Part shown: positions 9,672-60,511 of the stretch, one piece after another
Position numbering within the stretch: the stretch's first letter is position 1
Layout: every line of letters begins with the position of its first letter
NCBI GenBank assembly: GCA_035538515.1
Contig: DATLKF010000018.1
Location: forward strand, 69,760-133,759
DNA length: 64,000 bases
DNA from: Gemmatimonadales bacterium
GTDB taxonomy: Bacteria; Gemmatimonadota; Gemmatimonadetes; Gemmatimonadales; GWC2-71-9
Direction: 5' to 3'
Made by a program: the position numbers and the translations under genes
The notes under the pieces: model-generated
Seen by the model: the letters and a program-made list of their open reading frames with translations, nothing else
Databases searched by the model: none
Told to the model about the DNA's origin: nothing

Positions 9672-10322
9672 AACGACTTCCCGATGTTTATCCCCCCACC
9701 CCGCCCAGGCCACGAATAGCCAGCCGAACAGCAGCCCCCCGATGCCGAGGGCCGTCGTCGTGGGTGGCGGCGGGCTGAAGAGGGACGCCGCGTACGAGGC
9801 GACGAGGAGCGCGATCAGCGCGCCAAAACCGTAGCGACCCACCGCATCGCGTGCTCGCGTCATCTCGAGATAGATCCACAACGCCGCGCCAAACATCGCC
9901 GCCTCGACCAGCACGGTTCCGCCGACATGATTCCAGAGTCCGAGTCCCACGCGAGGCCCCCCTCCGGGGTAGAGCGGCATGTCCGGGACGTGCGTGACCC
10001 AGTCGAGTACCCAATGGCTCACGACGAGCAGGGCGACGATCAACGCGCCATGGGCATAGCTGGTGCGGGCGCGATACCAGAGCGCGAACAACGCCGCCCA
10101 CGCGAGCAGCGTGAGCAGGCTGTGCGAGATCGGGTACGCGTCGAAAGTGAGGTTGAGGAACGGATTGGGCCCGCCGGTGATGCGCACCCGCTCCCATCCG
10201 GTCAATACGAACGCCGGCCAGACCAGGTCCGCGAGGGTGGCGGCGGCGAACAGCGTGCCGAGCGAGGTTCGCGGCGCGGCGCGCTTGGCGGCGAGCGCGA
10301 CGGCGTAGTGCCCGATGAACAT
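9639..10322 (-). CDS. Polytopic membrane protein (possibly YdjM/DUF457-like membrane hydrolase)
   Basis: 227-aa ORF starting MFIGHYAVALAAKR, with 6-7 hydrophobic segments and conserved-looking His/Asp (SHWVLDWVTH). The functional assignment is weak. Confidence 0.6.
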   Translation of the reverse strand: MFIGHYAVALAAKRAAPRTSLGTLFAAATLADLVWPAFVLTGWERVRITGGPNPFLNLTFDAYPISHSLLTLLAWAALFALWYRARTSYAHGALIVALLVVSHWVLDWVTHVPDMPLYPGGGPRVGLGLWNHVGGTVLVEAAMFGAALWIYLEMTRARDAVGRYGFGALIALLVASYAASLFSPPPPTTTALGIGGLLFGWLFVAWAGWGDKHREVVPRRHEATFHG

Positions 10323-10328
10323 TCGGTC

Positions 10329-11591
10329 TCAGCCGGCCAATCGCAGCAGGGCGTAGTCCTTCTTGCCCTTGCGCAGCAGCACGTTTTGGTCAGCGAGCCA
10401 GTCGCCGGGCTCGATCCGACGGTCGACTTCCTTCACGCGCTGTTGGTTCAGGTAGACGCCGCCCTGCTCGATCGAGCGCCGGGCCTCGCTCTTCGATTGC
10501 GCGAGCCCGGCTTGTACGACGGCGTCAACCAGGTTGAGCGTGTCCCTACTCGACACGATCGTGGTCGGGATCTCACGGGCGAGGGTGTCGAACACACGGC
10601 GGTCGGCGGCGTGCGGATCGAAGTCGCCGAACAAGACTTCCGAGGCGACGCCGGCGGCACGGGCCGCGTCGCCGTGCACCAGGGTGGTGACGCTCATCGC
10701 TAGTCGTTTTTGCGCCTCGCGCCGGCTGGGATCCTTGTGATGGGATCGAATCAGCGCCTTGATCTCGTCCTCGGCCAGGTCGGTGAACGGCTTGAGATAC
10801 TGTTCCACATCTCGATCGTCGGTGTTGACCCAGAATTGGTACAACTGGTAGGGTGAGGTGAGCTCGGGATCGAGCCAGACGGCGCCCGTCGCGGTCTTCC
10901 CGAACTTCGCTCCCGCCGCCGTGGTGAATAGGGGGGCAACGAGCCCATGCGCCTCGCCACCTGCCACCCGGCGGATCAGGTCGATCCCCGCGGTGATGTT
11001 GCCCCATTGATCGCTCCCACCCACCTGAATCGTGCACTGGTGCGTGCGGAACAGATGCAGGAAATCGTAAGCCTGCAGCAACATGTAGCTGAATTCGGTG
11101 TAGGAGATGCCGCTGTCGAGGCGCGCTTTCACCGACTCCTTCTGCAGCATGACGTTCACGCTGAAGTGCTTGCCGATGTCGCGCAGGAAGTCGACGAGGC
11201 GCTGCTCGACGAGCCAGTCGGCGTTGTTGAGCACGAGGGCGCGCGTGTCTTTCGAGTCGAAGTCGAACAGGCGTCCCAGCTGGTCGCGCTGGCGATGCAC
11301 GTTCTGGCGGATCTCATCCTTGGAGAGCAGCGGACGCTCGGTCTGCTTGCCGCTGGGATCGCCGATGAGCCCGGTGCCGCCGCCCATCAAGACGATGGGC
11401 CGGTGGCCGTGGAGTTGGAATCGCCGCAGCAGCATCAGCGGCATCAGGTTGCCGACCTGGAAGCTGGGGGCCGTGGGATCGAAGCCGCAGTACACGGACC
11501 GCCGCTCAGCGAAGTGGCGCTCGATGTGCTGCGTCGCTTGTGCAAGGAACCCACGCCACTTGAGCTCGGCGAAGAGGTCTGACATGGACAT
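10329..11591 (-). CDS. tyrS: Tyrosyl-tRNA synthetase
   Basis: It carries YCGFDPTAPSFQVGNLMPL (the HIGH-region position), GGGTGLIGDPSGK, the KMSKS-equivalent KFGKT and a C-terminal S4-like domain. The start was chosen at MSMSDLF; the track ORF begins 27 nt further upstream. Confidence 0.9.
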   Translation of the reverse strand: MSMSDLFAELKWRGFLAQATQHIERHFAERRSVYCGFDPTAPSFQVGNLMPLMLLRRFQLHGHRPIVLMGGGTGLIGDPSGKQTERPLLSKDEIRQNVHRQRDQLGRLFDFDSKDTRALVLNNADWLVEQRLVDFLRDIGKHFSVNVMLQKESVKARLDSGISYTEFSYMLLQAYDFLHLFRTHQCTIQVGGSDQWGNITAGIDLIRRVAGGEAHGLVAPLFTTAAGAKFGKTATGAVWLDPELTSPYQLYQFWVNTDDRDVEQYLKPFTDLAEDEIKALIRSHHKDPSRREAQKRLAMSVTTLVHGDAARAAGVASEVLFGDFDPHAADRRVFDTLAREIPTTIVSSRDTLNLVDAVVQAGLAQSKSEARRSIEQGGVYLNQQRVKEVDRRIEPGDWLADQNVLLRKGKKDYALLRLAG

Positions 11592-17541: not shown

Positions 17542-18884
17542 CGCGTATGGCGCGGAAGCGAATTTCGAGACGGAAATTCGTCGGCGACCTGGGCGCCGCT
17601 GCGGCGTTCACGATCGTCCCCCGCCACGTGCTGGGCCGAGGCTACCGGGCGCCCAGCGACAAGCTCAACGTGGCCTGCATCGGCGTGGGCGGCATGGGAC
17701 GCAACGACGTGAAGGGAATGGAAGGCGAGAACATCTACGCGCTGTGCGACGTAGACTGGAAGGCGGCGGAAGACGCGTTTCAGTCCTACCCGAAGGCCAA
17801 GCGATACAAGGACTACCGTGAGATGCTCGACCGCGAGTCGAAGAACATCGATGCGGTCACCGTCTCCACGCCGGATCACTCGCACACTGCCGCGGGCCTC
17901 TTGGCGATGAAAGCGGGCAAGCACACCTACATCCAGAAGCCGCTGGCGCGAACCATGGGCGAGGTGCGGGCGCTGGCCGACTCCGCGCGCGCCCATCCCA
18001 AGCTCATGACCCAGATGGGCAACCAGGGGCACGCCCGCGAAGGGACGCGCCTGATCCGCGAGTGGGTGGAGGCAGGCGCCATTGGGATCGTGCGCGAGGT
18101 GCATTTCTGGACCAACCGCCCAATCTGGCCCCAGGCGATCGACCGCCCGCTCGAGGAGTACTACGTTCCCGCCACCCTGGACTGGAACCTGTGGCTCGGC
18201 CCGGCTCCTGAGCGGCCATATCATCCGGCGTACGTGCCCTTCAAGTGGCGCGGGTTCTGGGACTTCGGCACCGGCGCCCTTGGCGACATGGCGTGTCACA
18301 TCATGGATGCCGCGTACTGGACGCTCGATCTCGGATTCCCGACGCGCATCGAACCCGAGTCCACACCGCTCTTCAAAGAGACCGCGCCTGCGGGTTCGCG
18401 CATCACTTATACGTTCGCCTCGAAGGGAGGCCGTCCGGAGGTGAAGGTGGTGTGGCGCGACGGCAGCCTCTATCCACCGCGGCCGCCGGAGGTAACCGAC
18501 GACGCACCCTGGCCCCAAGACCGCGGGGGCGGCCAATTGTGGATCGGCAGCGCCGGCAAGCTCACAGCGGCTACGTACGGCGACGATCCGAAGGTGCTCG
18601 ACCCCGCGAAGCAGGCCGAGCTCACGGCGCATCCCGTGCCCCAGAAGTACCCGCGCTCGCAAGGGGTGTACGCCGAGTGGATCGCGGCGTGCAAAGGTGG
18701 AACCGCCCCCGGCTCGACCTTCGACGGCCACGCCGGAGGGCTCACGTCCATGGTGCTGCTCGGCTGCCTGGCCGTGCGGTTGGGCCGGACGCTTGAGATC
18801 GACGCGGCGACAGGTCAGGTGACGAACCTGCGCGTTCCGGAGGAGTACATCCGGCCGACGTATCGGTCGGGGTGGAGCCTCTAG
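17538..18884 (+). CDS. Tat-exported Gfo/Idh/MocA-family oxidoreductase (GH109-like architecture)
   Basis: ATGA overlap with the upstream gene. It has the twin-arginine signal RISRRKFVGDLGAAAAF and the Rossmann start LNVACIGVGGMGRND. Confidence 0.85.
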   Translation: MTRMARKRISRRKFVGDLGAAAAFTIVPRHVLGRGYRAPSDKLNVACIGVGGMGRNDVKGMEGENIYALCDVDWKAAEDAFQSYPKAKRYKDYREMLDRESKNIDAVTVSTPDHSHTAAGLLAMKAGKHTYIQKPLARTMGEVRALADSARAHPKLMTQMGNQGHAREGTRLIREWVEAGAIGIVREVHFWTNRPIWPQAIDRPLEEYYVPATLDWNLWLGPAPERPYHPAYVPFKWRGFWDFGTGALGDMACHIMDAAYWTLDLGFPTRIEPESTPLFKETAPAGSRITYTFASKGGRPEVKVVWRDGSLYPPRPPEVTDDAPWPQDRGGGQLWIGSAGKLTAATYGDDPKVLDPAKQAELTAHPVPQKYPRSQGVYAEWIAACKGGTAPGSTFDGHAGGLTSMVLLGCLAVRLGRTLEIDAATGQVTNLRVPEEYIRPTYRSGWSL

Positions 18885-18897
18885 GCAGGTAAGGCTT

Positions 18898-18922
18898 GTG
18901 TAGGGGCGCGGCGCCCCTACAC
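18898..18922 (+). other. Perfect GC palindrome after the oxidoreductase gene (terminator-like, no T-run)
   Basis: gtgtaggggcgc-g-gcgcccctacac gives a 12-nt perfect inverted repeat, 14 nt after the stop at 18884. The taggggc/gcccta motif resembles one unit of the GGGCTAG family. Confidence 0.4.
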
Positions 18923-18976
18923 GTCCCGGCAACGCTAGATTGCTGCGATGCGTGCTCGCGACCGGGTGCGATACCT

Positions 18977-19672
18977 GTGGGCCTGAGCGACTCCCTCAAC
19001 CACAATCCGCTGTTGGCCCTCGTGACCCTGTTCGGCGCCGGTCTCGTTACCAGTCTCACGCCCTGCATCTACCCGATGATCCCGATCACGGCCGGCATCC
19101 TATCGGGGACGAGCACGGGCGTCCAATCACGGGCACGAACCGCCGGTCTTACGTTCACCTACGCGGTCGGCCTCGCACTTTTTTACGCGATCCTCGGCCT
19201 GGTCGCCGGGCTGTCGGGCTCGCTGTTCGGCACCGTGAGCGCGAGTCCCTGGGCACGCTTCGCGATCGGGAACCTGTTGCTCGTCTTTGGCCTTGCCATG
19301 CTCGGCGTGATCCCTGTTGCAGCCCCGCAGCGTCTTATGCAATGGGCGGGGGGGTTCCGTGGCGGGTCGTACCCGGCGGTGTTTCTACTCGGAGCGACGT
19401 CCGGGATTGTCGCGGCGCCGTGCGGCGCACCGGCGTTCGCGGCGGTTCTCACCTGGGTGGCGACGACGCGGAGCGGATTGCTCGGCTTCGTGTACTTATT
19501 CGTGTTCTCTTTGGGAATGACCGCGCTGCTCGTGGTGGTCGGGCTGTTCTCCGGGAGCCTCGCGGCGCTGCCCCGCTCCGGGCAGTGGATGGTGTGGATC
19601 AAAAAGCTCGCGGGCGTGGTGCTGCTGGGGACGGCGGAGTACTACTTCATTCAGATGGGAAAGGTGCTGTGA
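18977..19672 (+). CDS. ccdA: Cytochrome c biogenesis / thiol-disulfide electron transporter CcdA (DsbD family)
   Basis: LFGAGLVTSLTPCIYPMIPIT and a second conserved Cys segment IVAAPCGAP. The start was taken at the in-frame GTG 18977; the track ORF begins at 18896. Confidence 0.8.
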   Translation: MGLSDSLNHNPLLALVTLFGAGLVTSLTPCIYPMIPITAGILSGTSTGVQSRARTAGLTFTYAVGLALFYAILGLVAGLSGSLFGTVSASPWARFAIGNLLLVFGLAMLGVIPVAAPQRLMQWAGGFRGGSYPAVFLLGATSGIVAAPCGAPAFAAVLTWVATTRSGLLGFVYLFVFSLGMTALLVVVGLFSGSLAALPRSGQWMVWIKKLAGVVLLGTAEYYFIQMGKVL

Positions 19673-20163
19673 CGAAATACGCATGGGCAGTCAGTGTCGC
19701 GTTGCTCTGGCCGGCGGCGCTTGTCGCGCAGGATGTCGGGCTTCCGGTGGGATCTCAGGCTCCGGCGGTCTCCGTCAAAGATCTCGACGGCAAGAGCGTG
19801 GACTTGGGCAGCTACATCGGCAAGGGGCCAGTGCTGCTCGAGTTCTGGGCCACGTGGTGTCCGCTGTGCAACGCGCTCGAGCCGGCACTCAAAGACGCGC
19901 ACGCGCGGTACGGCAGCGCGGTGCGGTTCGTGGCGATCGGCGTGGGCGTGAACGAAACCCCGGCGTCGATCCGGCGCCACCTCGCGAGCCACCCTTTACC
20001 GTTCGCGGTGCTGTTCGACGCGAGCGGCGACGCGGTGCGGGCGTTCGCGGCTCCCACCACGTCGTACATTGTGGTGCTCGATAGGGCCGGGAAGGTCAGC
20101 TACACCGGGACCGGGTCCGACCAGGATGTCGCCTCCGCATTGGGGCGCGTCGCCAGTCGCTAG
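19669..20163 (+). CDS. Exported TlpA/ResA-like thioredoxin-fold thiol:disulfide oxidoreductase
   Basis: The GTG at 19669 overlaps the ccdA stop. It has the signal peptide VTKYAWAVSVALLWPAALVAQ and the active site EFWATWCPLCNA. Confidence 0.8.
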   Translation: MTKYAWAVSVALLWPAALVAQDVGLPVGSQAPAVSVKDLDGKSVDLGSYIGKGPVLLEFWATWCPLCNALEPALKDAHARYGSAVRFVAIGVGVNETPASIRRHLASHPLPFAVLFDASGDAVRAFAAPTTSYIVVLDRAGKVSYTGTGSDQDVASALGRVASR

Positions 20164-20173
20164 CGAACCTGTG

Positions 20174-20209
20174 CCCCAGCGCCACGTTCCCGTTGTGCAG
20201 GGATCCCTA
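20174..20209. mobile_element. Solo terminal fragment of the MITE-like element
   Basis: ccccagcgccacgttcccgttgtgcagggatcccta matches the outer roughly 35 nt of the element arms (ccccagccccacgttccccttgtgcagattccct). It lies in the convergent spacer between tlpA and the peroxiredoxin gene. Confidence 0.5.
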
Positions 20210-20213
20210 GAGA

Positions 20214-20813
20214 CTACTCTTCCCCCGCCTGAGGCGGCTTGGGCAGGATCCGATCGATCGCCGCCGCCAGGTCCTTGTACGACTGCGGGTCGATCTCGCG
20301 GAACGGCGTCATCCGGTAGGCGATCTTGCCGTCCGGTCCCACCACGAAAAGGGTCCGGTTGTCGAGCCCGTACTTCGCGTTGAACGCACCGTAGGTCTTC
20401 CCGACCGCGCTGCCCGAGTCGCTCGCGAACAGGATCGGCAGCTCGTCGTCCCGGGCCCACGCCGCGAGCGTGTCCGCGGCGTCCGCGCTGATGCCGATCG
20501 GCACCACGCCACGCCCGTCGTGAAACAGCTGTGCGTACTGATCACGGTACGCATGCATTTGGATCGTTCACCCCTTGGTGCGCGCCTTGTAGAAGAAGGC
20601 GAGCACGACCGTCTTGCCCTTGAAGTCGCTCAAGTGGATCGGCGCCTTGAGGGTGCCGTAGCGCGTCGCTCCCGGCAGCGTGAAGTCGGGGGCCACCGCC
20701 CCGACCTGGAGCGGCTCGGGCTCCTTGGGCGGGGCCGCCTGCTGGGCGTGCAGGCTCGGTACGGCGAACGCGGCCAGCAACGGCAGCGTACGTGCGGCGG
20801 TTGAGCGGCTCAT
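20214..20813 (-). CDS. Exported Bcp/PrxQ-type peroxiredoxin with in-frame TGA (probable selenocysteine) at the peroxidatic position
   Basis: The ATG at 20813 is preceded by agggag. The signal peptide is MSRSTAARTLPLLAAFAVPSLHA. The sequence reads ...FKGKTVVLAFFYKARTKG-TGA(20570-20568)-TIQMHAYRDQYAQL... in a single frame. It aligns with E. coli Bcp [28 protein letters not shown], so the TGA falls on the catalytic Cys. The track splits this gene into the tail of ORF 20568..21563 plus ORF 20214..20558. Confidence 0.75.
20532..20553 (-). promoter_or_regulatory. Candidate bacterial SECIS stem-loop
   Basis: On the mRNA the stem begins 14 nt after the UGA. It reads U-GCGUAC-CGUGAUCA-GUACGC-A, a 7-bp perfect stem with an 8-nt loop containing G/U. 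The loop G residues lie 23-25 nt from the UGA, within the range usually described for bSECIS. Confidence 0.5.
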
Positions 20814-20824
20814 AAAGCTCCCTT

Positions 20825-22429
20825 TCAGTCCTTGAGCGAGTGGTAGTTCACGTCGAGCACGCGCAGCCGCTCGAGATGGGTGGCGAGCCGGGCCGTGAAG
20901 TCGGTGAAGTCCCGCTCCGCCTTCGGCGTCCACAGGACTTCGGCGAGCGCGCACGCCCGCGGGAACGCCATGTATTCGACTCGCTTCGCATCGGGAATGT
21001 ACTCCGTCCACACCTGTCCTTGCGACCCCAGCACATGTCGCGCTTCGGCGTCGGTGAGCGCCGCCGGGACGGGCTCGTAGGAGTACACCGTATCGAGCGG
21101 CAAGTAGCCGCCGATCGCCAGCGGCTCGGCGGTTGTGTCGGCGGACTGATAATGATCGAAGTAGGTATGTGACCCGGGCGCCATCACGACGTCGTGCCCC
21201 GCTCGCGCCGCGGCGATGCCGCCGTCTTCTCCGCGCCACGACATCACGACGGCGTTGGGCGCCAGCCCGCCCTCGAGGATCTCGTCCCAGCCCACGAGCC
21301 GGCGACCGTGCGCCGTCAGGAACTCGTCCATGCGACGCGTGAAGTAGCTCTGCAGCTCGTCCTCGCTCTGCAAGCCCAGCTCGCGGATGCGGGCCTGCGC
21401 CAGCGCGCTCGCCTTCCACTGCTGCTTGGGCGCTTCGTCGCCTCCGATGTGGATCCAGGGGCCGGGGAACAGCGCCATCACTTCGGTGAGCACGTTCTGG
21501 TAGAAGCGAATCGTCGGCTCGCCGGGGTTGAGGATGTTCTCGTCCACACCCCAGGCGGTCCACACGGGCAAGGAATCCCCCGTGTTGCCGAGCTCGGGAT
21601 AGGCCGCAATCGCCGCTTGCGAGTGGCCGGGCATCTCGATCTCCGGCACGATCGTGACGAACCGTGCGTGCGCGTACGCCACGATCTCACGCACGTCGTC
21701 CTGACTGTAGAACCCACCGTGGGGCTGGCCGTCGAACTGCCACGTGGTCGAGTCCTCGTTCTTCCGGCCGAGGATCGTTTGACGGCGCCAGGCGCCCACC
21801 TGCGTGAGTCGCGGATACTGCTTGATCTCGATGCGCCACCCCTGGTCTTCCGTCAGGTGCCAGTGAAACCGGTTCATCTTATGGAGCGCCAGGAGATCGA
21901 TGTACTTCTTCACGAACTCCTTCGGCATAAAGTGCCGTCCCACGTCGAGGTGCATGCCGCGCCAGCTGAACCGCGGGTAGTCTTCGATGGACACAGCGGG
22001 GGCGCGCCACGCCACCCCGTCGACTTTCGCCTGCCGGAAGATCGCCGCTGGGAAGAGCTGGCGCAGTGTCTGGATCGCGTAAAACGCTCCCGCCGGCCGC
22101 CGCGCGCGGATCGTCACGCGACCCGGTCTCACCTCCAGCCGATAGCCTTCGTCGCCCAGCGCCGCTAGCGTGGAATCGAGGCGGATCGAGATCATCCGCG
22201 CCCCCGCGCGTGCCGTCGCCGCGACGGTCAGGCGGAACCCCGTGGCGGGGAAGAGATAGTCGGCGAGCGCCCAGCCGAGCTGGCGGCTCGCGGCGTCCGT
22301 CGTGATCACGGTCGCGCCGGTCAGCGAGAAGCTGCCGACCTGGGCCGTGAGTTTCACCGGGCGCGGGACGATAGTGAGCCCGGAGTCGACTGCCAAGGCC
22401 AGGGCCAGAGCCAGGGCCGCCGGCGTCAT
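20825..22429 (-). CDS. Beta-N-acetylhexosaminidase (GH20)
   Basis: It has the signal MTPAALALALALAV, then the GH20b and catalytic regions HLDVGRHFMPKEFVKKYIDLLALHKMNRFHWHLTEDQGWRIEI and HIGGDEA. The ATG at 22429 overlaps the upstream stop (ATGA). The first roughly 210 aa of track ORF 20825..23059 are out-of-frame overlap with the DPP-IV gene. Confidence 0.9.
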   Translation of the reverse strand: MTPAALALALALAVDSGLTIVPRPVKLTAQVGSFSLTGATVITTDAASRQLGWALADYLFPATGFRLTVAATARAGARMISIRLDSTLAALGDEGYRLEVRPGRVTIRARRPAGAFYAIQTLRQLFPAAIFRQAKVDGVAWRAPAVSIEDYPRFSWRGMHLDVGRHFMPKEFVKKYIDLLALHKMNRFHWHLTEDQGWRIEIKQYPRLTQVGAWRRQTILGRKNEDSTTWQFDGQPHGGFYSQDDVREIVAYAHARFVTIVPEIEMPGHSQAAIAAYPELGNTGDSLPVWTAWGVDENILNPGEPTIRFYQNVLTEVMALFPGPWIHIGGDEAPKQQWKASALAQARIRELGLQSEDELQSYFTRRMDEFLTAHGRRLVGWDEILEGGLAPNAVVMSWRGEDGGIAAARAGHDVVMAPGSHTYFDHYQSADTTAEPLAIGGYLPLDTVYSYEPVPAALTDAEARHVLGSQGQVWTEYIPDAKRVEYMAFPRACALAEVLWTPKAERDFTDFTARLATHLERLRVLDVNYHSLKD

Positions 22430-24702
22430 GCGCCGCCGCGTGAGCGAGGCCCGGGCGGCAAATGCTCCAGCAGATAGCGAGTCAGCAAGGAGAACACGTG
22501 CAGCGTGGTGCCCCGACCCTCGCAGATGCAATGGCTGCGATTGGGGTAGTCCATGAAATCCACCGGCTTGTCGAGCGCGATCAGGCGGTTGAGCAGGCGC
22601 TCGGAGCCCTGATAATGGACGTTGTCGTCCCCGGAGCCGTGCACGAGGAGCAAGTGGCCGCGCAGCCCCTCTGCGTGGCTGATGGCCGAAGCCGTGTCGT
22701 ACCTCGTGGCATTTTCTTGCGGTAGGCCCATGTAGCGTTCCTGATAAATCGTGTCGTACAGCCGCTCGTCGGGGACGGGAGCGACGCTCATCCCCACCTG
22801 GTAGACGTCGGGGTAGCGGAACAGCGCCTGGAGCGTACTCGAGCCGCCGCCGCTCCACCCCCAGATGCCCACTCGCGTGGGATCGAGGTAGGGCCGGGAC
22901 CGGGTCAGCGCGCGCACGGCGTCCGCCTGCTCCCGGCTCGACAGCACGCCGATCGCTCCATAGACCACCTTGCGCCAGGCCCGGCCTCGCGGTGCCGGCG
23001 TGCCGCGGTTGTCGACGCTCGCTACGATGTACCCCTGTTCTGCCAGCATCCGATGCCACAATCCCATGCCGCCCATCCAGCGGTCGAGCACCGTCTGTCC
23101 GGCGGGCTCCCCGTACACATACATCAGAAGCGGGTAGGTCTTCGTGGAATCGAAATCGCGCGGTCGCACCATCCAGCCGTCGAGCGTCGCACTATCGGAG
23201 AGCGTCACGCGGAAGAACTCGGTGGGCTGCTTCTCGAGCGGCGCGACGGCGGCGCGTAGCTGCTCATTCGCGACCACCGTGCGGACGACGGCGTGCGACG
23301 GCAGGCGGACGAGCTCCGTGATGGGCGGCGCATCGAACGTCGAATAGGTGTGCCACGCCCACCGCGCATCGGGCGAGACCTCGTACGAATGCGTGCCCGG
23401 TCGATCGGCGGGTGAAAGACGCTCGGCCTTCCCCGCGCCGTCGAGCCGTATGCGATACAGGTACCGCTGAGTCGCGTTGTCCGGGGAGGCCACGTAGTAC
23501 AACCACCCCCCCGGCTCGTCCACCGCGGCCACCTCGATCACGTCGAAGCGACCCGGCGTCACGAGACGCGCCGATTTCCCGTCGCGCGTGACTGAGTACA
23601 CGTGACGCCAGCCGTCCCGCTCGCTGAGCCAGATGAACTCTTTCCCGCCCCCGAGCCATTGCAAGTCGTCCACCACGTCCAGCCACGCGCTGTCCCGCTC
23701 CACCAGGACGGTGTGGACCGCGCCGCTCGCGGCGTCGGCGAGCAGCACGCGGTCGACGTTCTGCGCGCGGTTCATCCGCTGCAACACCAGCTCCTGGGAC
23801 CCGGCCCACTCGAGCCGGGGCAGATAGTTCTGGCGTGGATCGTCGGGCACGCGGAGCCAGGTGACCGGACCGCCGGCCGCGCCGACGACGCCGGCGGTCA
23901 CGCTCGAGTTGGTGGTTCCCGCCTTGGGGTACTGAACGGGAATGACGAATGGATAGAGGGAGTCCGTGTCGTTGACGAGCAGGAACTGGCCGACACCGGT
24001 CATGTCGAAACGCCAGAATGCGATTTTGGATCCGTCGGGCGACCATCGGAAGCCGTCGCGCAGGTCGAACTCCTCTTCGTAAACCCAGTCGGTCATGCCG
24101 TTCACGTGCAGCGAGTCGGCGTCCGCGGTGAGGCGTGTGATGTGGCCGTCAGAGAGGCGCTCGACGTACAGGTCCCCCTGCAGCACGTATGCGACGCGGT
24201 CTCCCGTGGGCGAGAACTTCGCGTACATGAGCGAGGACGGCGGGGCCTCCCCGCCCAGCTTGTGGAGTGTGCCCGCCGCGCGATCCAGCACCCAGTAGTC
24301 CCCGCGCGTGTTCTGGCGCCACACCCGCTGCGAGTTGGTGAACAGCAGGACTTTCGATGCGTCGCTCGACCAGATGTAGCCGTCGATGTCGAGGGGCGCC
24401 GACTCGCCTGCCGGTGTGAGCTGCCGAGCGGCGACGGCGATGGAGCGGGCACCCGTGGCCGTCTCATAACGGACGATCTCCGATGCGCCAGATCGATCGG
24501 CAGCCGGCTCGACGGTCGTGTACGCCGTTCCGCCGGCGATCCAGCGGGCCGGCCCGAAGTGTTGCGGCGCGAACTCACGCGAGCCGAACACACGTCGCAG
24601 CATGTCGCCGACGGAGGCGGGCAGCTGTGCCGCCAGGGGGGAAGGCGAGGCCCACGCCGCCGGCGCACCCGCGACAGCCAGGAGCAACATGACTCGACGC
24701 AT
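22426..24702 (-). CDS. Dipeptidyl-peptidase IV (S9B prolyl oligopeptidase family)
   Basis: It has the signal MRRVMLLLAVAGAPAAWA, a DPP-IV N-terminal beta-propeller region, the catalytic GIWGWSGGGS, and late Asp/His (GSGDDNVH). Confidence 0.9.
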   Translation of the reverse strand: MRRVMLLLAVAGAPAAWASPSPLAAQLPASVGDMLRRVFGSREFAPQHFGPARWIAGGTAYTTVEPAADRSGASEIVRYETATGARSIAVAARQLTPAGESAPLDIDGYIWSSDASKVLLFTNSQRVWRQNTRGDYWVLDRAAGTLHKLGGEAPPSSLMYAKFSPTGDRVAYVLQGDLYVERLSDGHITRLTADADSLHVNGMTDWVYEEEFDLRDGFRWSPDGSKIAFWRFDMTGVGQFLLVNDTDSLYPFVIPVQYPKAGTTNSSVTAGVVGAAGGPVTWLRVPDDPRQNYLPRLEWAGSQELVLQRMNRAQNVDRVLLADAASGAVHTVLVERDSAWLDVVDDLQWLGGGKEFIWLSERDGWRHVYSVTRDGKSARLVTPGRFDVIEVAAVDEPGGWLYYVASPDNATQRYLYRIRLDGAGKAERLSPADRPGTHSYEVSPDARWAWHTYSTFDAPPITELVRLPSHAVVRTVVANEQLRAAVAPLEKQPTEFFRVTLSDSATLDGWMVRPRDFDSTKTYPLLMYVYGEPAGQTVLDRWMGGMGLWHRMLAEQGYIVASVDNRGTPAPRGRAWRKVVYGAIGVLSSREQADAVRALTRSRPYLDPTRVGIWGWSGGGSSTLQALFRYPDVYQVGMSVAPVPDERLYDTIYQERYMGLPQENATRYDTASAISHAEGLRGHLLLVHGSGDDNVHYQGSERLLNRLIALDKPVDFMDYPNRSHCICEGRGTTLHVFSLLTRYLLEHLPPGPRSRGGA

Positions 24703-26775: not shown

Positions 26776-27348
26776 TCAATAGCTCACGCCCAGCTTCGCG
26801 AGCGCTTCCGGCGGACAGCCCTTCCACTCGGCGACGAACGTGTTGCCGATGTAGCGCAGGTCTTGCACGCCCATGCGGCTGGAGAAGAACCCCGAGGCCG
26901 TCAGGTCGCGGAAGCTGTTGAAGAAGGCGACGCCCGCCGCGTGCTCGGGCTTGGCTCGCTTCGGCCAGGCGATGTCGTTCAGCACGCCCGTTCGCTCGGC
27001 ATCGCTCGCGGTGAGGAACGTCTTGCCGTAGCGGTCGTCACACTCGTGATCCAACCACGCCAGGCCGCCGCGGATCGGCGTCTCGAGGTCGCGATCGTCA
27101 CCCAGCATGAAGTCCATGAACTCGGGCACGCCGGCGTCGATCGCGCTGCCGGAGCGCTCGTCCTTGGGAATGATCAGGTCCACCAGCAGGCGCACGGTGT
27201 CCCACTCGTGCGGGGTGAAGTGCTTCGGCTCGTAGGCCCCCCACCCTCGGGCTTTCGCGGCGTACTCCGCGGCGCGCTGCACTTGCGCCGGAGTTAAGGC
27301 GAGTCCCGCAGCGCTGGCCAGTAGCTTGATGCTCTCGCGGCGTTTCAC
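26776..27348 (-). CDS. Gluconate 2-dehydrogenase subunit 3-family small Tat subunit
   Basis: The GTG at 27348 gives MKRRESIKLLASAAGLALTPAQ, a twin-arginine leader. The size (about 190 aa) and the position directly after a GMC flavoprotein fit the small hitch-hiker subunit of periplasmic sugar dehydrogenases. The track uses TTG 27360. Confidence 0.75.
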   Translation of the reverse strand: MKRRESIKLLASAAGLALTPAQVQRAAEYAAKARGWGAYEPKHFTPHEWDTVRLLVDLIIPKDERSGSAIDAGVPEFMDFMLGDDRDLETPIRGGLAWLDHECDDRYGKTFLTASDAERTGVLNDIAWPKRAKPEHAAGVAFFNSFRDLTASGFFSSRMGVQDLRYIGNTFVAEWKGCPPEALAKLGVSY

Positions 27349-49674: not shown

Positions 49675-50466
49675 TCAGAAGATCGAGCGCGTGAACCCGC
49701 CGTCCACTTGCAGCGCAGCGCCCGTAATATAGCTGGCCCGCTCGGAGGCCAGAAACGCGACGGCGGCCGCCAGCTCGTCCGTGCGGCCCATTCGGCCGAG
49801 CGGGATGCCCGCGACCATGTCGCGCATCACCTCTTGCGACGCCCGCCGCTCCCGCTTGGCGCGGTTCTCCGTGAGCTCGGCGATGCGCTCGGTCGCGATA
49901 TAGCCGGGACACACCACGTTGACGGTGATGCCCTCGGGCGCAACCTCGTCCGCGAGCGCCTTGGCGAACCCGAGGACCCCGGCGCGCGCGGTAGTGGAGA
50001 GGATGAGTCCGGGCAGCGGCTGCTTAGCGGCGACCGATGCCAGGCAGATGATCCGGCCCCACTGCACCTTTCGCATGATCGGCACGGCGGCACGCGCAAG
50101 GTGGACCGTAGACAGCAGATTTAGCTCCACCGCGCGGTGAAACGCCTCACCCGTCTGCTGAGTGAACGGCGCCGCGGGCGGGCCGCTCGCGTTGCAGAAC
50201 AGCACGTCGAGGCGTCCCATGTCGTGGTGCACGCGCTCGATCAGCCCTTCGGCTTGGGCGGGCACTGCCACGTCGGCGGCGAACGACGCCACGTCCTCCC
50301 CGGTTTCGGAGGCCAGCTGTTGCGCCGCCTGCTCGACCGATTCCTGGTGACGGCCGTTGATCGCGACGCGGGCGCCTTCCAGTGCCAGCGCCTTCGCCAC
50401 CGCGCGACCCAATCCCTTGGTGCTACCGCAGACCAGCGCAACACGACCCGCGAGGCCGAGGTCCAC
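49675..50466 (-). CDS. Short-chain dehydrogenase/reductase (FabG-like)
   Basis: The GTG start gives [26 protein letters not shown] (TGxxxGxG-type). The YxxxK region and PGYIATER are present. Confidence 0.85.
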
Positions 50467-53400
50467 GGGGGCTCGGGATTAGGGGTTCGGGGCTCGGGTC
50501 GCAACCGTTGGCTCCCCGAGCCCCGAGCCCCGAGCCCCGAGCCCCGAGTCCCTCAAGCCGGACCGCGCAGCACTTCAGCTCCGCCATCTTCGCGTAGGGA
50601 TCGAGCACCGGGTTCGTGAGCAGGTTCGCTGCCGCTTCCCGGAAATGGAACGGCACGAACACCTGGCCACGAGCGACCCGCTCGGAGATGCGGCACGAGC
50701 TCACCATCGAGTTGCGGCGCGACGTGAGCCGCACCGCGTCGCCATCCAGGAGGCCCAGCGCGCGGGCATCGTCGGGATGGACCTCGACGACGGGGGTGGG
50801 CTCGCGCTGATCGAGGCCGGTGGCGCGGCGGGTCATCGTCCCGGTATGCCAGTGATACAGCTGGCGCCCCGTATTCATGACGAACGGGTACTGGTCGTCG
50901 GGGAGCTCGACCGGGGGCGCGTACTGCACGGGCACGAACACTCCCCGCCCGTCGGCGGTGGGGAAGCGGTCGCTGAACAGAAACGCCGTGCCGGGCGAGT
51001 CGGACGTGGGCGCGGGGTACTGCAGCCCCGCCCCGTCGAGCCGCTCGTAGGTGACCCCGTGCCAGGAGGGCGTGACGCTGGCGATTTCCTGCATTACGTC
51101 GCGCGCCGTGGTAAAGGATGTCTTGAGGCCGAGGCGCGTGGACAGCTCGATCAGGATTTCCAGGTCCCCGCGCGCCTCTCCCGGGGACGGCACCGCCGCG
51201 CGCGCGAGCTGAATGCGGCGCTCGGTGTTCACGAACGTGCCCGTCTTCTCCGCGAAGCTCGAGCCCGGGAGCACGACGTCGGCGTAGCGGGCGGTCTCCG
51301 TGAGGAACAGGTCCTGCACCGCGAGGAACTCGAGCTCCTGGAACCAGGCCTCGGCGTGCGCGATGTCGGGGTCCGAGATGATCGGGTTCTCCCCCATGAT
51401 GTACATCGCGCGGACGCCGCTCTCCTCCTTCACGATCTCGGTCACCATCAGCCCGCTCTTGAGCGACAGCGAATCCGCCGGGACGTCCCAGGCCTTCGCG
51501 TATTCCGCTCGAACGGCGGGGTCCGTGACCGGCCGATAGTCGGTGTACACGAACGGAATGGCGCCCACGTCCGACGCACCCTGGACGTTGTTTTGGCCCC
51601 GCACGGGCATCATGGCGGCTCCCCAGCGGCCGATCATGCCGCACCCGAGCATGAGGTTCAGGAGCGACGTCACGAGATCGGTACCGTTGGCGTGCTGCGT
51701 CAGCCCCATTGCCCAGAGCGTGCTCGTGTTCGGCCCGCGGGCGTAGAGCTCCGCGGCCTCCCGGATCCGTTCGGCAGGCACGCCGGTGATCTTGGCCGCC
51801 ACCTCGGGCGTCATGGCCTTGACCGATTCGCGGACCGCCTCGAAGGCGCGCATGCGCTCGGCGATGAAACGGCGGTCCTCCAGCCCCTGGGCGATGACGT
51901 GGTGCAACATCGCGTTGAACAAGGCGACGTCGGTGCCGGGCTGCATCTGCAGATGGAGATCCGCACGGCGGGCGAGCTCCGTCTTGCGAGGATCGGCGAC
52001 GATCAGCCGGGCGCCCCGCTCGTGGGCGCGCTTGATCGCGGCGCCGAACACCGGATGCGACTCGGTGGTGTTCGCGCCGGCGATGAAGATGACGTCGGCG
52101 GCGTGCTCCACCTCGCGCATCGAGCCCGATGCGGCCGACGTGTTGAGCGCCCGTTGCATCGCCGCGACTGACGTGGAGTGGCACAGTCGGGTGCAATGGT
52201 CGACGTTGTTGGTGCCGAGCGCCGCGCGGAACATCCGCATGATGAGATAGTTCTCCTCGTTGGAGCACTTGGCCGAGGAGAAGCAGGCCAGGGAGTCGCC
52301 GCCGCGCTCCCGCTTGAGGCGGAGCAGCTCCTGGGTCGTGAGCTCCAGCGCCTCCTCCCAGGTGGCTTCGCGGAACGGATCGTACCAGTCGCGCGGCGTC
52401 GCCACGCGGTCGCGAATGTCGAGGTCCAACCGCTCGAGCAGGGCCAGGTTGCGCACCGCTTTCCCGACCGACCGCGGCGGCGGCGCCGGCTTGGCCTTCT
52501 GGCCTTCGCCTTCGATCGTCTGCCACGGCCCGCCGCGACGGTTCCTTCCCGTTCGGCCGCGCCACACCCAACGGCCTTGCTCTTTCTCCCACCCCTTACG
52601 GATGAGCGGCTTGGTCAGGCGATCGCGATGCTGCGGAAAGTCGTATCCGAAGCGTCCCTTGACGCAGGTAGAGCCCTGGTTGGGGGTGTCGAGCTCGATG
52701 TCCGGCGACGTGACGCGCAGGACACTCCCGCCCGCGACGTGGAGGTCCACCTGGCACCCGACGCCGCAGTACGGACACACCGAGCGCACCGTGCGGGCGG
52801 GATGACGGATCTGCTCGGGGGTGAACCGCTGGCGCGGCATCACCTCGAAAATCGCGCCCGTCGGGCACACCCGGACGCATTCTCCGCACCAGGTGCATCC
52901 CGCCTTGTCGGCATCGCCGTCCGCCCCCACGATGATCTCGGCGTGTTCGCCGCGTTGCGCGACGTCGAGCACGCCGACCACCTGGATGTCCTCGCACGCC
53001 CGCACGCAGCGGGTGCACAGGATACACGTGCTCATGTCGTGCCGGATCATCGAATCGCCCGGTCGCTCGTCCCCGTGCCGCAGCGGCAGATCGCGCTGGC
53101 CCAGGGGCGTCGGCGCGACTCCGTACCGGACGACATACCGCTCGAACTCGTTGCGCGGATGGGACCGGCCGCCATTGGCGAGGTGATCGGCCGGGTAGCG
53201 CTCGAGCAGCAGCCGCAGCACTCCCTTGCGGCTCTCGACCGCCGCCGGCGACTCGGTGTGCACCACCATGCCGTCTGCGACCTTGGTGGCGCACGCGGGG
53301 AGCAACTTGGGCTGTCCTTCGACCGAGACCAGGCAGATCCGGCAGTTGCCCACGATCGGCAGCTTGGGATACCAACACAGGGTCGGGATACCGCCGATCC

Positions 53401-53479
53401 CGGCCGCTCGGGCGGCGTCGAGGATCGTTTGCTGGGGATCGGCGGTGATGGTGCGGTCGTCGATGGTGAGCGTCGCCAT
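50423..53479 (-). CDS. FdhA-like molybdopterin oxidoreductase (2Fe-2S + 4Fe-4S + MopB domains), Cys-type
   Basis: It has an N-terminal 2Fe-2S ferredoxin fold ([11 protein letters not shown]), [31 protein letters not shown], the active-site region [15 protein letters not shown], and the C-terminal molybdopterin-binding end ...[11 protein letters not shown]. The ORF then reads a further about 44 codons through hairpin K to a stop at 50423. Confidence 0.85.
50467..50552. repeat. Hairpin of tandem 7-nt units (GGGCTCG family) with G-quadruplex-capable arm, locus K
   Basis: gggggctcgggattaggggttcggggctcggg (50467-50498) faces ccccgag x5 + tccc (50514-50552). It abuts the SDR GTG and lies inside the 3-prime end of the FdhA-like ORF. 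Confidence 0.85.
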
Positions 53480-53539
53480 TATTCGTGAAGCTAGGGGCGA
53501 CCCGGATACCGGGCAACTTCTTCAGGGAGATAGGACCGG

Positions 53540-59251: not shown

Positions 59252-60511
59252 TCATCCCTGCGCCATCGTCTGGAAGAACTCGGTGTTCGTTTTGGTCCGC
59301 TTGAGTCGCTCCAGCAGGAACTCGACCGCCTCCACGGGCGGCATGTCGGCCAGGAAGTTGCGCAACAGGTAGACCTTGTTGAGCTCCTCCTTGCCGAGTA
59401 GGAGCTCTTCCTTGCGCGTGCTGGTGCGCTGGACGTCGATGGCTGGGAAGGTCCGTCGCTCGGCGATGCGGCGGTCGAGGATCACTTCGGAGTTGCCAGT
59501 GCCCTTGAATTCCTCGAAGATGACCTCGTCCATGCGGGAGCCGGTGTCGATGAGGGCGGTCGCGAGGATGGTGAGCGACCCGCCACCTTCGATGTTGCGC
59601 GCCGCGCCGAAGAAGCGCTTCGGCTTTTGCAGCGCATTCGCGTCAACGCCTCCCGAGAGGATCTTGCCGGAGTGCGGGACCACCACGTTGTGCGCTCGCC
59701 CCAGGCGTGTAATCGAGTCGAGCAGGATCACCACGTCCTTGCCGTGTTCCACGAGGCGTTTCGCCTTCTCGATCACCATGTCGGCCACCTGGACGTGCCG
59801 ATCCGCGGGCTCGTCGAACGTCGACGAAATCACCTCGACGTTTGGGCCCTTGACGTTCTCCTCCATGTCCGTCACCTCTTCGGGCCGCTTGTCGATCAGC
59901 AGCACGATGAGGTAGATGTCGGGATGATTCTCGATGATGGAGTTGGCGAGCTTCTGCATGAGGATCGTTTTTCCGGCCTTCGGCGGCGACACGATGAGCC
60001 CCCGCTGTCCCATCCCGATCGGGCTCAGGATGTCCATCACCCGCATCGACAGGTCGCCGTCCTTGCGTTCCAGCTTGATGCGCCGCTCCGGGTAGCGGGG
60101 ACGCAGGTTGTCGAATGCGACACGGTGCTTCGCTTTCTCGGGCTCATCCCCGTTGACCACCTCGACCTTCAGCAGCGCGAGGTAGCGCTCGCCCTCCTTG
60201 GGGGGCCGCACCTGCCCCATGATCGTGTCCCCCGTGCGCAGGTCGAACCGCTTGATCTGGCTGGGCGAGACGTAGATGTCGTCGGGGCCGTACAGGTAGT
60301 TCCAGTCGGGACTGCGGAGAAAGCCGTAACCCTCGGGGAGGATCTCGAGAACGCCCTCGCCTCGCAGCACCGTGTCCGAGTCAAGGAGCGATTGCTCGAT
60401 GCGGAAGATCAGATCCTGCTTGCGAAGCCCTGAGTAGTTGGTGATGTTCAGGGTTTCGGCCATCGCGTGTAGTTCCGCGACGGATTTCCTCTTCAGTTCA
60501 GCGATATCCAC
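59252..60511 (-). CDS. rho: Transcription termination factor Rho
   Basis: It has an N-terminal rho_N ([22 protein letters not shown]), an RNA-binding cold-shock-like domain ([14 protein letters not shown]), Walker A PPKAGKT, and the Q and R loops. Confidence 0.95.

Follow-up and report, generated by a model that had tools for sequence, protein, structure and literature searches.

Introduction

PrxU of Eubacterium acidaminophilum is the characterised member of the selenocysteine (Sec) peroxiredoxins (COG1225/PF00578). Peroxiredoxins (Prx) are an established selenoprotein family (PMC13188914), with 43 Sec-containing genes in the Sargasso Sea survey (PMC1088965) and 78 organisms in 2016 (PMC5029168), and those with a TxxU active site have been known since 2001 and belong to the commoner bacterial selenoprotein families (PMC13188914, PMC5029168, PMC1088965). 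Here we describe a gene of this kind, prx(U), in a stretch of 64,000 nucleotides (nt) from a Gemmatimonadales bacterium (GenBank assembly GCA_035538515.1, contig DATLKF010000018.1, positions 69,760 to 133,759), which as a whole is called the window in the following. We conclude, with a probability of roughly 0.9, that its reverse strand at 20214-20813 encodes a signal-peptide-bearing peroxiredoxin of the BCP/PrxQ-AhpE type, in which a UGA-encoded Sec82 is the single catalytic residue.

prx(U) shares with the Sec-peroxiredoxin family the fold, Sec in place of the peroxidatic Cys in T-x-x-U, and a selenocysteine insertion sequence (SECIS) hairpin just downstream. In contrast to PrxU, its product stays below the cut-off of the model NF040737, carries a signal peptide and contains no other Cys. 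While the motif of Sec-peroxiredoxins is written PxxxTxxU (PMC13188914), Phe or Tyr takes the position of the Pro in the prx(U) family, which unlike the known members occurs in Gemmatimonadota of aerobic soils, a phylum for which we found no report of Sec use. The best matches in sequence and structure are Mycobacterium tuberculosis AhpE (Rv2238c) and the archaeal proteins Bcp1 and Bcp4. The prx(U) product resembles AhpE in relying on one catalytic residue and lacking a resolving Cys, whereas AhpE, Bcp1 and Bcp4 are cytoplasmic, use Cys and possess the active-site Pro.

An envelope pathway of peroxide reduction composed of ScsB, TlpA and PprX has been experimentally shown in Caulobacter crescentus (PMC3322552). 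There, an exported PrxQ-type peroxiredoxin is combined with an exported TlpA-like thioredoxin as its reductant and with a membrane protein of the DsbD family that imports electrons, and the same combination is predicted from the genes at the locus studied here, where prx(U), tlpA and ccdA are adjacent in most genomes examined. However, the catalytic residue of Caulobacter PprX is a Cys within an intact PxxxTxxC motif, and a resolving Cys is also present; in place of ScsB the prx(U) locus holds a minimal CcdA, with a relay that is suggested by synteny only.

An earlier reading of the window made from its sequence alone, in the following the original prediction, had regarded an exported Sec-peroxiredoxin as unusual. 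The feature itself is real, but it is less unusual than was held there, because TxxU peroxiredoxins and exported peroxiredoxins are each already known; that Prx-like selenoproteins appear in surveys, as it also stated, agrees with the surveys cited above. What seems to be undescribed is the presence of prx(U) in every Gemmatimonadota relative retrieved, its conserved module with ccdA and tlpA, and the loss of the active-site Pro in step with Sec. BSepDB, a database of 2026 with 57,000 bacterial selenoprotein genes from 64,762 genomes (PMC13326102), may already list prx(U) genes of Gemmatimonadota.

The prx(U) gene and its in-frame TGA

The features of the gene that are needed for the argument are as follows.

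20214-20813, reverse strand: prx(U), gene of 199 codons for the putative exported 1-Sec peroxiredoxin, from the ATG at 20811-20813 to the TAG at 20214-20216
20568-20570, reverse strand: in-frame TGA, codon 82, at the peroxidatic position of T-x-x-U, aligned to Cys in homologues
20532-20553, reverse strand: SECIS-type hairpin with a stem of 7 base pairs (bp), UGCGUAC/GUACGCA, and the loop CGUGAUCA, marked by frozen synonymous sites and covariation
20355-20357, reverse strand: codon of Arg153, the conserved active-site Arg of peroxiredoxins, by alignment to 2ywn
20589-20591, reverse strand: codon of Tyr75, at the place of the Pro of PxxxTxxC, by alignments
20745-20813, reverse strand: predicted signal peptide of the Sec export pathway, residues 1-23, ending in ...SLHA/QQ, recognised by eye; orthologue N-termini are similar

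The reverse strand at 20214-20813 forms a single frame of 200 codons, translated as M...FFYKARTKG-TGA-TIQMHAYRDQ...GEE-TAG, and the TGA at codon 82, flanked as in VVLAFFYKARTKG-TGA-TIQMHAYRDQYAQLF, is its sole internal stop. A GGGAG precedes the ATG by 4 nt, and the N-terminus, MSRSTAARTLPLLAAFAVPSLHA/QQ, resembles a Sec-type signal peptide on inspection by eye only, with similar N-termini in the orthologues. No terminator or promoter was found in a scan around prx(U). With Cys put at codon 82, Pfam AhpC-TSA (PF00578) is recognised over residues 37-166 with an E-value of 4.5e-28, and this one domain thus extends across the TGA. In phmmer searches against the Protein Data Bank (PDB), the TGA column falls on the peroxidatic Cys of T-x-x-C in 2ywn from S. 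tokodaii and in 1xvw, which is M. tuberculosis AhpE, and T79-K-G-U82 matches the T-x-x-C of both.

Automatic annotation cuts prx(U) into fragments of 81 and 114 amino acids (aa), and split gene calls were found in every relative examined. The matches to the NCBIfam models are all below threshold, with 64.6 bits against a cut-off of 140 for Bcp and 62.3 bits against 270 for the PrxU equivalog NF040737. No curated model would make a pipeline read through the TGA. An antioxidant enzyme that is widespread in an abundant phylum of soil bacteria is thus systematically mis-annotated. The original prediction had described a continuous reverse-strand frame with one TGA on the catalytic Cys, a good Shine-Dalgarno sequence, two halves that are both needed for one Prx domain, and an annotation that would call two fragments, and on each of these points the translation, the GGGAG, the Pfam and PDB matches and the gene calls agree with it.

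Conservation of the TGA and selection on both sides

We scanned a genome collection in which each GTDB species is represented once and obtained 80 loci, all of which carry the TGA (80/80) and nearly all of which bear a Gemmatimonadota label (Gemmatimonadales, Longimicrobiales and Ca. Kutchimonas). Among the records with the TGA form are the complete metagenome-assembled chromosomes CP070812.1 and CP070716.1 and the long contigs CAWETG010000001.1 and CAVVWJ010000001.1. The TGA was likewise present in 80/80 metagenome loci fetched with a profile of the Cys form and in five of six further loci (metagenome total 85/86), so that 165 of the 166 loci retrieved contain it, although the proteins diverge by about 50%. 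Across Gemmatimonadota, the peroxiredoxin commonly occurs in the Sec form. An independent Logan assembly of run SRR8500449 was 100% identical to the window over 18214-22558 (4.3 kilobases, kb), including the TGA. We aligned the codons of 164 TGA-containing genes and compared each with the window gene (163 comparisons), which resulted in a median ratio of nonsynonymous to synonymous substitution (dN/dS) of 0.13 over the 46 codons 5' of the TGA and of 0.31 for the part 3' of it. Both halves of prx(U) are under purifying selection.

A search of protein databases yielded about 110 full-length Cys homologues among the matches listed, together with C-terminal fragments starting at MHAYRDQ (P0013, with 97% identity and 19 members, P0069 and P0110); in addition, some full-length entries carried Leu, Trp or Arg instead of Cys. 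The fetched DNA showed the fragments to be halves of TGA-containing genes and one of the Leu entries to be TTA. Because gene callers split the gene, protein databases hold mostly the rarer Cys forms, and DNA searches return almost only Sec forms.

One of the records (L024, QHWJ01000199.1) is titled as an Acidobacteria gp6 metagenome-assembled genome, and its peroxiredoxin, TlpA and CcdA resemble their Gemmatimonadota counterparts, which may reflect a binning error or a transfer.

A covarying hairpin downstream of the UGA

The hairpin UGCGUAC-CGUGAUCA-GUACGCA begins 14 nt past the UGA, and its loop 21 nt past it. The original prediction had noted the same 7-bp stem and 8-nt loop at 20532-20553 and had expected a bacterial SECIS (bSECIS) at this place. 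According to the published bSECIS model, the loop has 3-9 nt, the stem 4-16 bp, the distance from the UGA to the loop is 16-37 nt, the minimum free energy (MFE) is at most -7.5 kcal/mol, and a G, often followed by G or U, stands within the first two loop positions (PMC13188914). The prx(U) hairpin fits this model throughout, with a loop of 8 nt, a stem of 7 bp, a spacing of 21 nt and an MFE of -8.6 to -11.7 kcal/mol; its loop begins with C-G-U, so that the G and the following U are loop positions 2-3.

Codons +6 to +11 after the TGA, which form the stem from G19-C38 to C24-G33 and the loop, read GCG UAC CGU GAU CAG UAC in 162 distinct sequences with zero entropy at five of them, the sixth being the Asp codon (GAU 154, GAC 8). 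At conserved Ala, Arg, Gly and Leu elsewhere in the gene the codon entropy is about 0.9-1.9 bits, and while the hairpin Arg is CGU in 162/162 sequences, CGU occurs at other conserved Arg columns in at most 16/162. The closing pair 18-39, which joins two third-codon positions, is U-A in 44, C-G in 36 and G-C in 2 of 82 sequences with no mismatch, and over all loci this seventh stem pair is kept in 166 of 167 hairpin copies. An extension by a lower helix in the MFE fold was rejected, its pairs being mismatched in many orthologues.

Three distinct Cys-type genes encode a similar peptide (A/T-Y-R-D-Q/K/R-Y) with other codons, namely GCC TAT CGT GAC AAG TAC, GCC TAT CGC GAC CAG TAT and ACG TAC CGG GAC CGG TAC, and in two of the three the hairpin is lost (-3.9 and -2.4 kcal/mol). 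This contrast rests on only three distinct sequences because the metagenome scan with the Cys profile gave 80/80 Sec forms.

The Cys form P0004 (L172-L175) contains in codons +5 to +11 a perfect palindrome of its own, GTACCGG-GACC-GGTAC (-12.7 kcal/mol), which may be what is left of an earlier SECIS or may have arisen by chance from the codons for Y-R-D-R-Y. The spacer at 20556-20567 (codons +1 to +4) is constrained too, with CAA for Gln +3 in 141/162 and ACG for Thr +1 in 140/162 sequences, and the preference for CAA at Gln +3 is unusual for a high-GC genome. A search for hairpins with the same loop elsewhere gave chance matches only, none with an in-frame TGA.

Selenocysteine and its alternatives

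The core claim is supported by the Sec/Cys pair at the catalytic position, the conserved TGA, purifying selection on its two sides and a conserved, covarying bSECIS-like hairpin at the right distance, which are the standard comparative criteria for a selenoprotein. We therefore regard the TGA of prx(U) as almost certainly decoded as selenocysteine.

Several points weigh against this conclusion. The Pro of PxxxTxxC, seven residues before the catalytic site and called absolutely conserved in peroxiredoxins (PMC3322552), is missing, its place being taken by Tyr75 in the window protein. No selA, selB, selD or tRNA-Sec was detected in the window or in 1.56 megabases (Mb) of related loci using ARAGORN and Rfam (window), ARAGORN (60 loci) and tblastn with E. 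coli SelA, SelB and SelD (window and 1.56 Mb); the related loci reach only some 10 kb to either side of the gene, so that this result says nothing about whole genomes. The searchable literature holds no report of Sec use in Gemmatimonadota, and a 2016 table of Sec-utilising bacteria has no Gemmatimonas entry. The folding energy of -11.7 kcal/mol is unremarkable in comparison to shuffled sequences (z = -1.05), and the case for the hairpin therefore rests on the comparative data. Finally, we infer that the protein is exported, that it acts as a peroxidase and that TlpA and CcdA serve as its relay. If the conclusion holds, prx(U) implies Sec decoding across Gemmatimonadota.

The sole match in these searches, a weak tblastn match to the G domain of SelB only, at L049 4151-6247 (reverse strand), was rejected as a 698-aa EF-G-like GTPase paralogue, which is encoded roughly 4 kb away from the peroxiredoxin.

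Among the alternatives, readthrough of the UGA without selenium survives best but is improbable. It would take place either by near-cognate Trp or Cys decoding stimulated by the hairpin or by a lineage-wide reassignment of UGA, and it would fit with the Sec machinery not being found in the window or the related loci scanned and with the database entry P0003, which has Trp at this codon. However, the Trp of P0003 is a code choice of the gene caller, the DNA being a TGA that was translated with another genetic code, and at the position of the catalytic Cys a Trp or Gly would abolish activity. The neighbouring genes for a GH20 enzyme and for CcdA end in ordinary TGA stops, and a scan of the window for in-frame TGAs with coding signal on both sides gave no other candidate, just ordinary gene junctions; therefore, the genetic code is not reassigned. 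TGAs between long same-frame stretches at 26776-26778, 10329-10331 and 59252-59254 (-) were rejected as gene junctions with a start within a few codons. The hairpin, moreover, matches the bSECIS model of the SelB type.

It is even less probable that the gene yields two polypeptides, an exported peptide of 81 residues and a C-terminal fragment re-initiated at Met86, four codons past the TGA. Met86 is invariant, and gene callers begin the downstream fragment there, but it is just as invariant in the Cys forms, which have no stop. In addition, a domain of the thioredoxin fold would be cut at its catalytic residue with the halves placed in different compartments, and neither the covariation in the hairpin nor its frozen synonymous sites would be explained. 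The least probability falls to an inactivated prx(U) in which the TGA would merely terminate translation, be it as a pseudogene, as a nonsense allele or through a sequencing error, and conservation in effect refutes this reading already: the two fragments given by gene callers, the TTA (Leu) at the Sec site of L005 (331-333) and the Leu and Arg there in the database proteins P0001 and P0084 stand against a TGA maintained in nearly all loci, the low dN/dS on both of its sides and an identical TGA in the independent assembly, with the TTA variant coming from an 864-bp contig of 1.6x coverage.

The sense codons at the Sec site of L005, P0001 and P0084 lie one mutation from TGA, and the Leu and Arg variants could be sequencing errors or inactive alleles.

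The active site and the missing proline

Returning to the Sec-peroxiredoxin that we favour, Arg153 aligns with the catalytic Arg of 2ywn and is invariant in one of our alignments (A2) and present in at least 90% of the sequences in another (A1). The mature protein has no Cys at all and therefore no resolving residue, and exactly one Cys is found in 109 of 110 Cys-type homologues. Given the single catalytic residue in Sec and Cys forms, this is a one-catalytic-residue peroxiredoxin resembling AhpE. In the AlphaFold model of the closest Cys orthologue, P0004 (alignment A3; mean predicted local distance difference test, pLDDT, 88.4), the Cys is the first residue of helix 79-88, and Foldseek against the PDB placed this model next to Sulfolobus Bcp4 and Bcp1, M. 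tuberculosis AhpE and BcpB, with target-normalised template modelling (TM) scores of 0.84-0.87.

The residue at the place of the PxxxTxxC Pro differs between the two forms. Among 159 distinct Sec forms, 81 have Phe there, 76 have Tyr, one has Val, one has Ile and none has Pro, while 109 of 110 Cys forms keep the Pro. The Sec form L104 (FFFRARTPG-U) is 87-89% identical to the Cys forms P0012, P0015 and P0008 (FFPRARTAG-C) and differs from them at both sites, and P0022 is a Cys form with Tyr at the Pro position, which looks like an intermediate. Parsimony on a rough neighbour-joining tree gave about 8 changes between Sec and Cys and about 7 between Pro and non-Pro, counts that are only indicative because the protein behind the tree is short and the branches carry no support values. 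We tentatively propose, at somewhat less than even odds, that Cys and Sec are exchanged only together with an obligatory second change, from Pro to Phe or Tyr with Sec, and with Pro accompanying Cys, and that this happened several times independently. As guesses, the aromatic residue might accommodate the larger selenium atom or shield the selenenic acid.

The tight pairing of Pro with Cys and of Phe or Tyr with Sec is a natural repeated experiment on what the pocket needs for selenium use. If the coupling is true, selenium needs a reshaped peroxiredoxin pocket. The Gemmatimonadota, an abundant and largely aerobic soil phylum, would then be a lineage with an exported peroxidase as a widespread selenoprotein and with an FdhA-like enzyme that uses Cys. 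The latter is encoded in the window at 50423-53521 (reverse strand), a 1032-aa molybdopterin oxidoreductase similar to NuoG and FdhA with Fer2_4, Fe4S4, Molybdopterin and Molydop_binding domains. A Cys stands at what we take to be the position of Sec in formate dehydrogenases of the FdhF type, and the usual bacterial selenoprotein thus appears to be of the Cys type here, whereas the peroxiredoxin uses Sec.

Two of the retrieved genes show local peculiarities. In L057 (CP070812.1, approximately 10001-10558) Gly replaces the conserved Thr of TxxU (AFYFRARGRN-U-TVQM), with the TGA and the hairpin kept. On one metagenome contig, L004 (6941-7333), the peroxiredoxin gene contains a tandem duplication of 18 residues (TLAAWARDDEFPYLFASD, twice), which could be an assembly artefact or a genuine insertion.

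Neighbouring genes and a possible electron relay

Three genes adjoin or lie close to prx(U) in the window.

19669-20163, forward strand: gene of a tlpA-like exported thioredoxin of 164 aa with WCPLC (Pfam Redoxin, AhpC-TSA, Thioredoxin and Thioredoxin_8)
18977-19672, forward strand: ccdA, DsbD_TM membrane electron transporter of 231 aa (Pfam DsbD_TM, 9.2e-44)
20825-22420, reverse strand: GH20 beta-hexosaminidase gene directly upstream of prx(U), with its TGA stop at 20825-20827, given for context only

The tlpA-like product has an N-terminal hydrophobic segment, and the GTG start of its gene overlaps the stop of ccdA by GTGA, an arrangement that points to translational coupling of the two genes. 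A tlpA-like gene lies downstream of and convergent with prx(U) at about 64 of roughly 80 placeable loci, and ccdA was found at 59. The pair also adjoins the Cys forms P0014 and P0004; since tlpA and ccdA stand beside both Sec and Cys genes, these are orthologues that belong to a single module of three genes. The CxxC is kept in all of the 135 TlpA partners examined, and in none of them does it contain a TGA.

The following mechanism would be consistent with the locus. The hairpin, 14-35 nt past the UGA, would act as a bacterial SECIS and recruit SelB with Sec-tRNA(Sec), so that the UGA is decoded instead of terminating translation. The peroxiredoxin would then leave the cytoplasm by Sec-pathway export, and its selenolate, as in the family, would reduce H2O2 or organic hydroperoxides and thereby become a selenenic acid. 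Because there is no resolving residue, the oxidised peroxiredoxin would probably be re-reduced directly by the neighbouring exported TlpA-like thioredoxin through its WCPLC. By gene adjacency and by analogy to ScsB-TlpA-PprX, CcdA would pass electrons across the membrane from cytoplasmic thioredoxin to TlpA. Such a pathway suggests a selenium requirement for the envelope peroxide defence of aerobic soil bacteria.

Upstream of prx(U), the window contains genes for Gluconate_2-dh3, a GMC oxidoreductase, a GFO/IDH/MocA protein, a 3-keto-disaccharide hydrolase, a DPP-IV peptidase and GH20. The view that prx(U) is the last gene of a periplasmic sugar-oxidation array fits with this gene content but describes local synteny only, the GH20 gene being found upstream of prx(U) only in the nine closest relatives.

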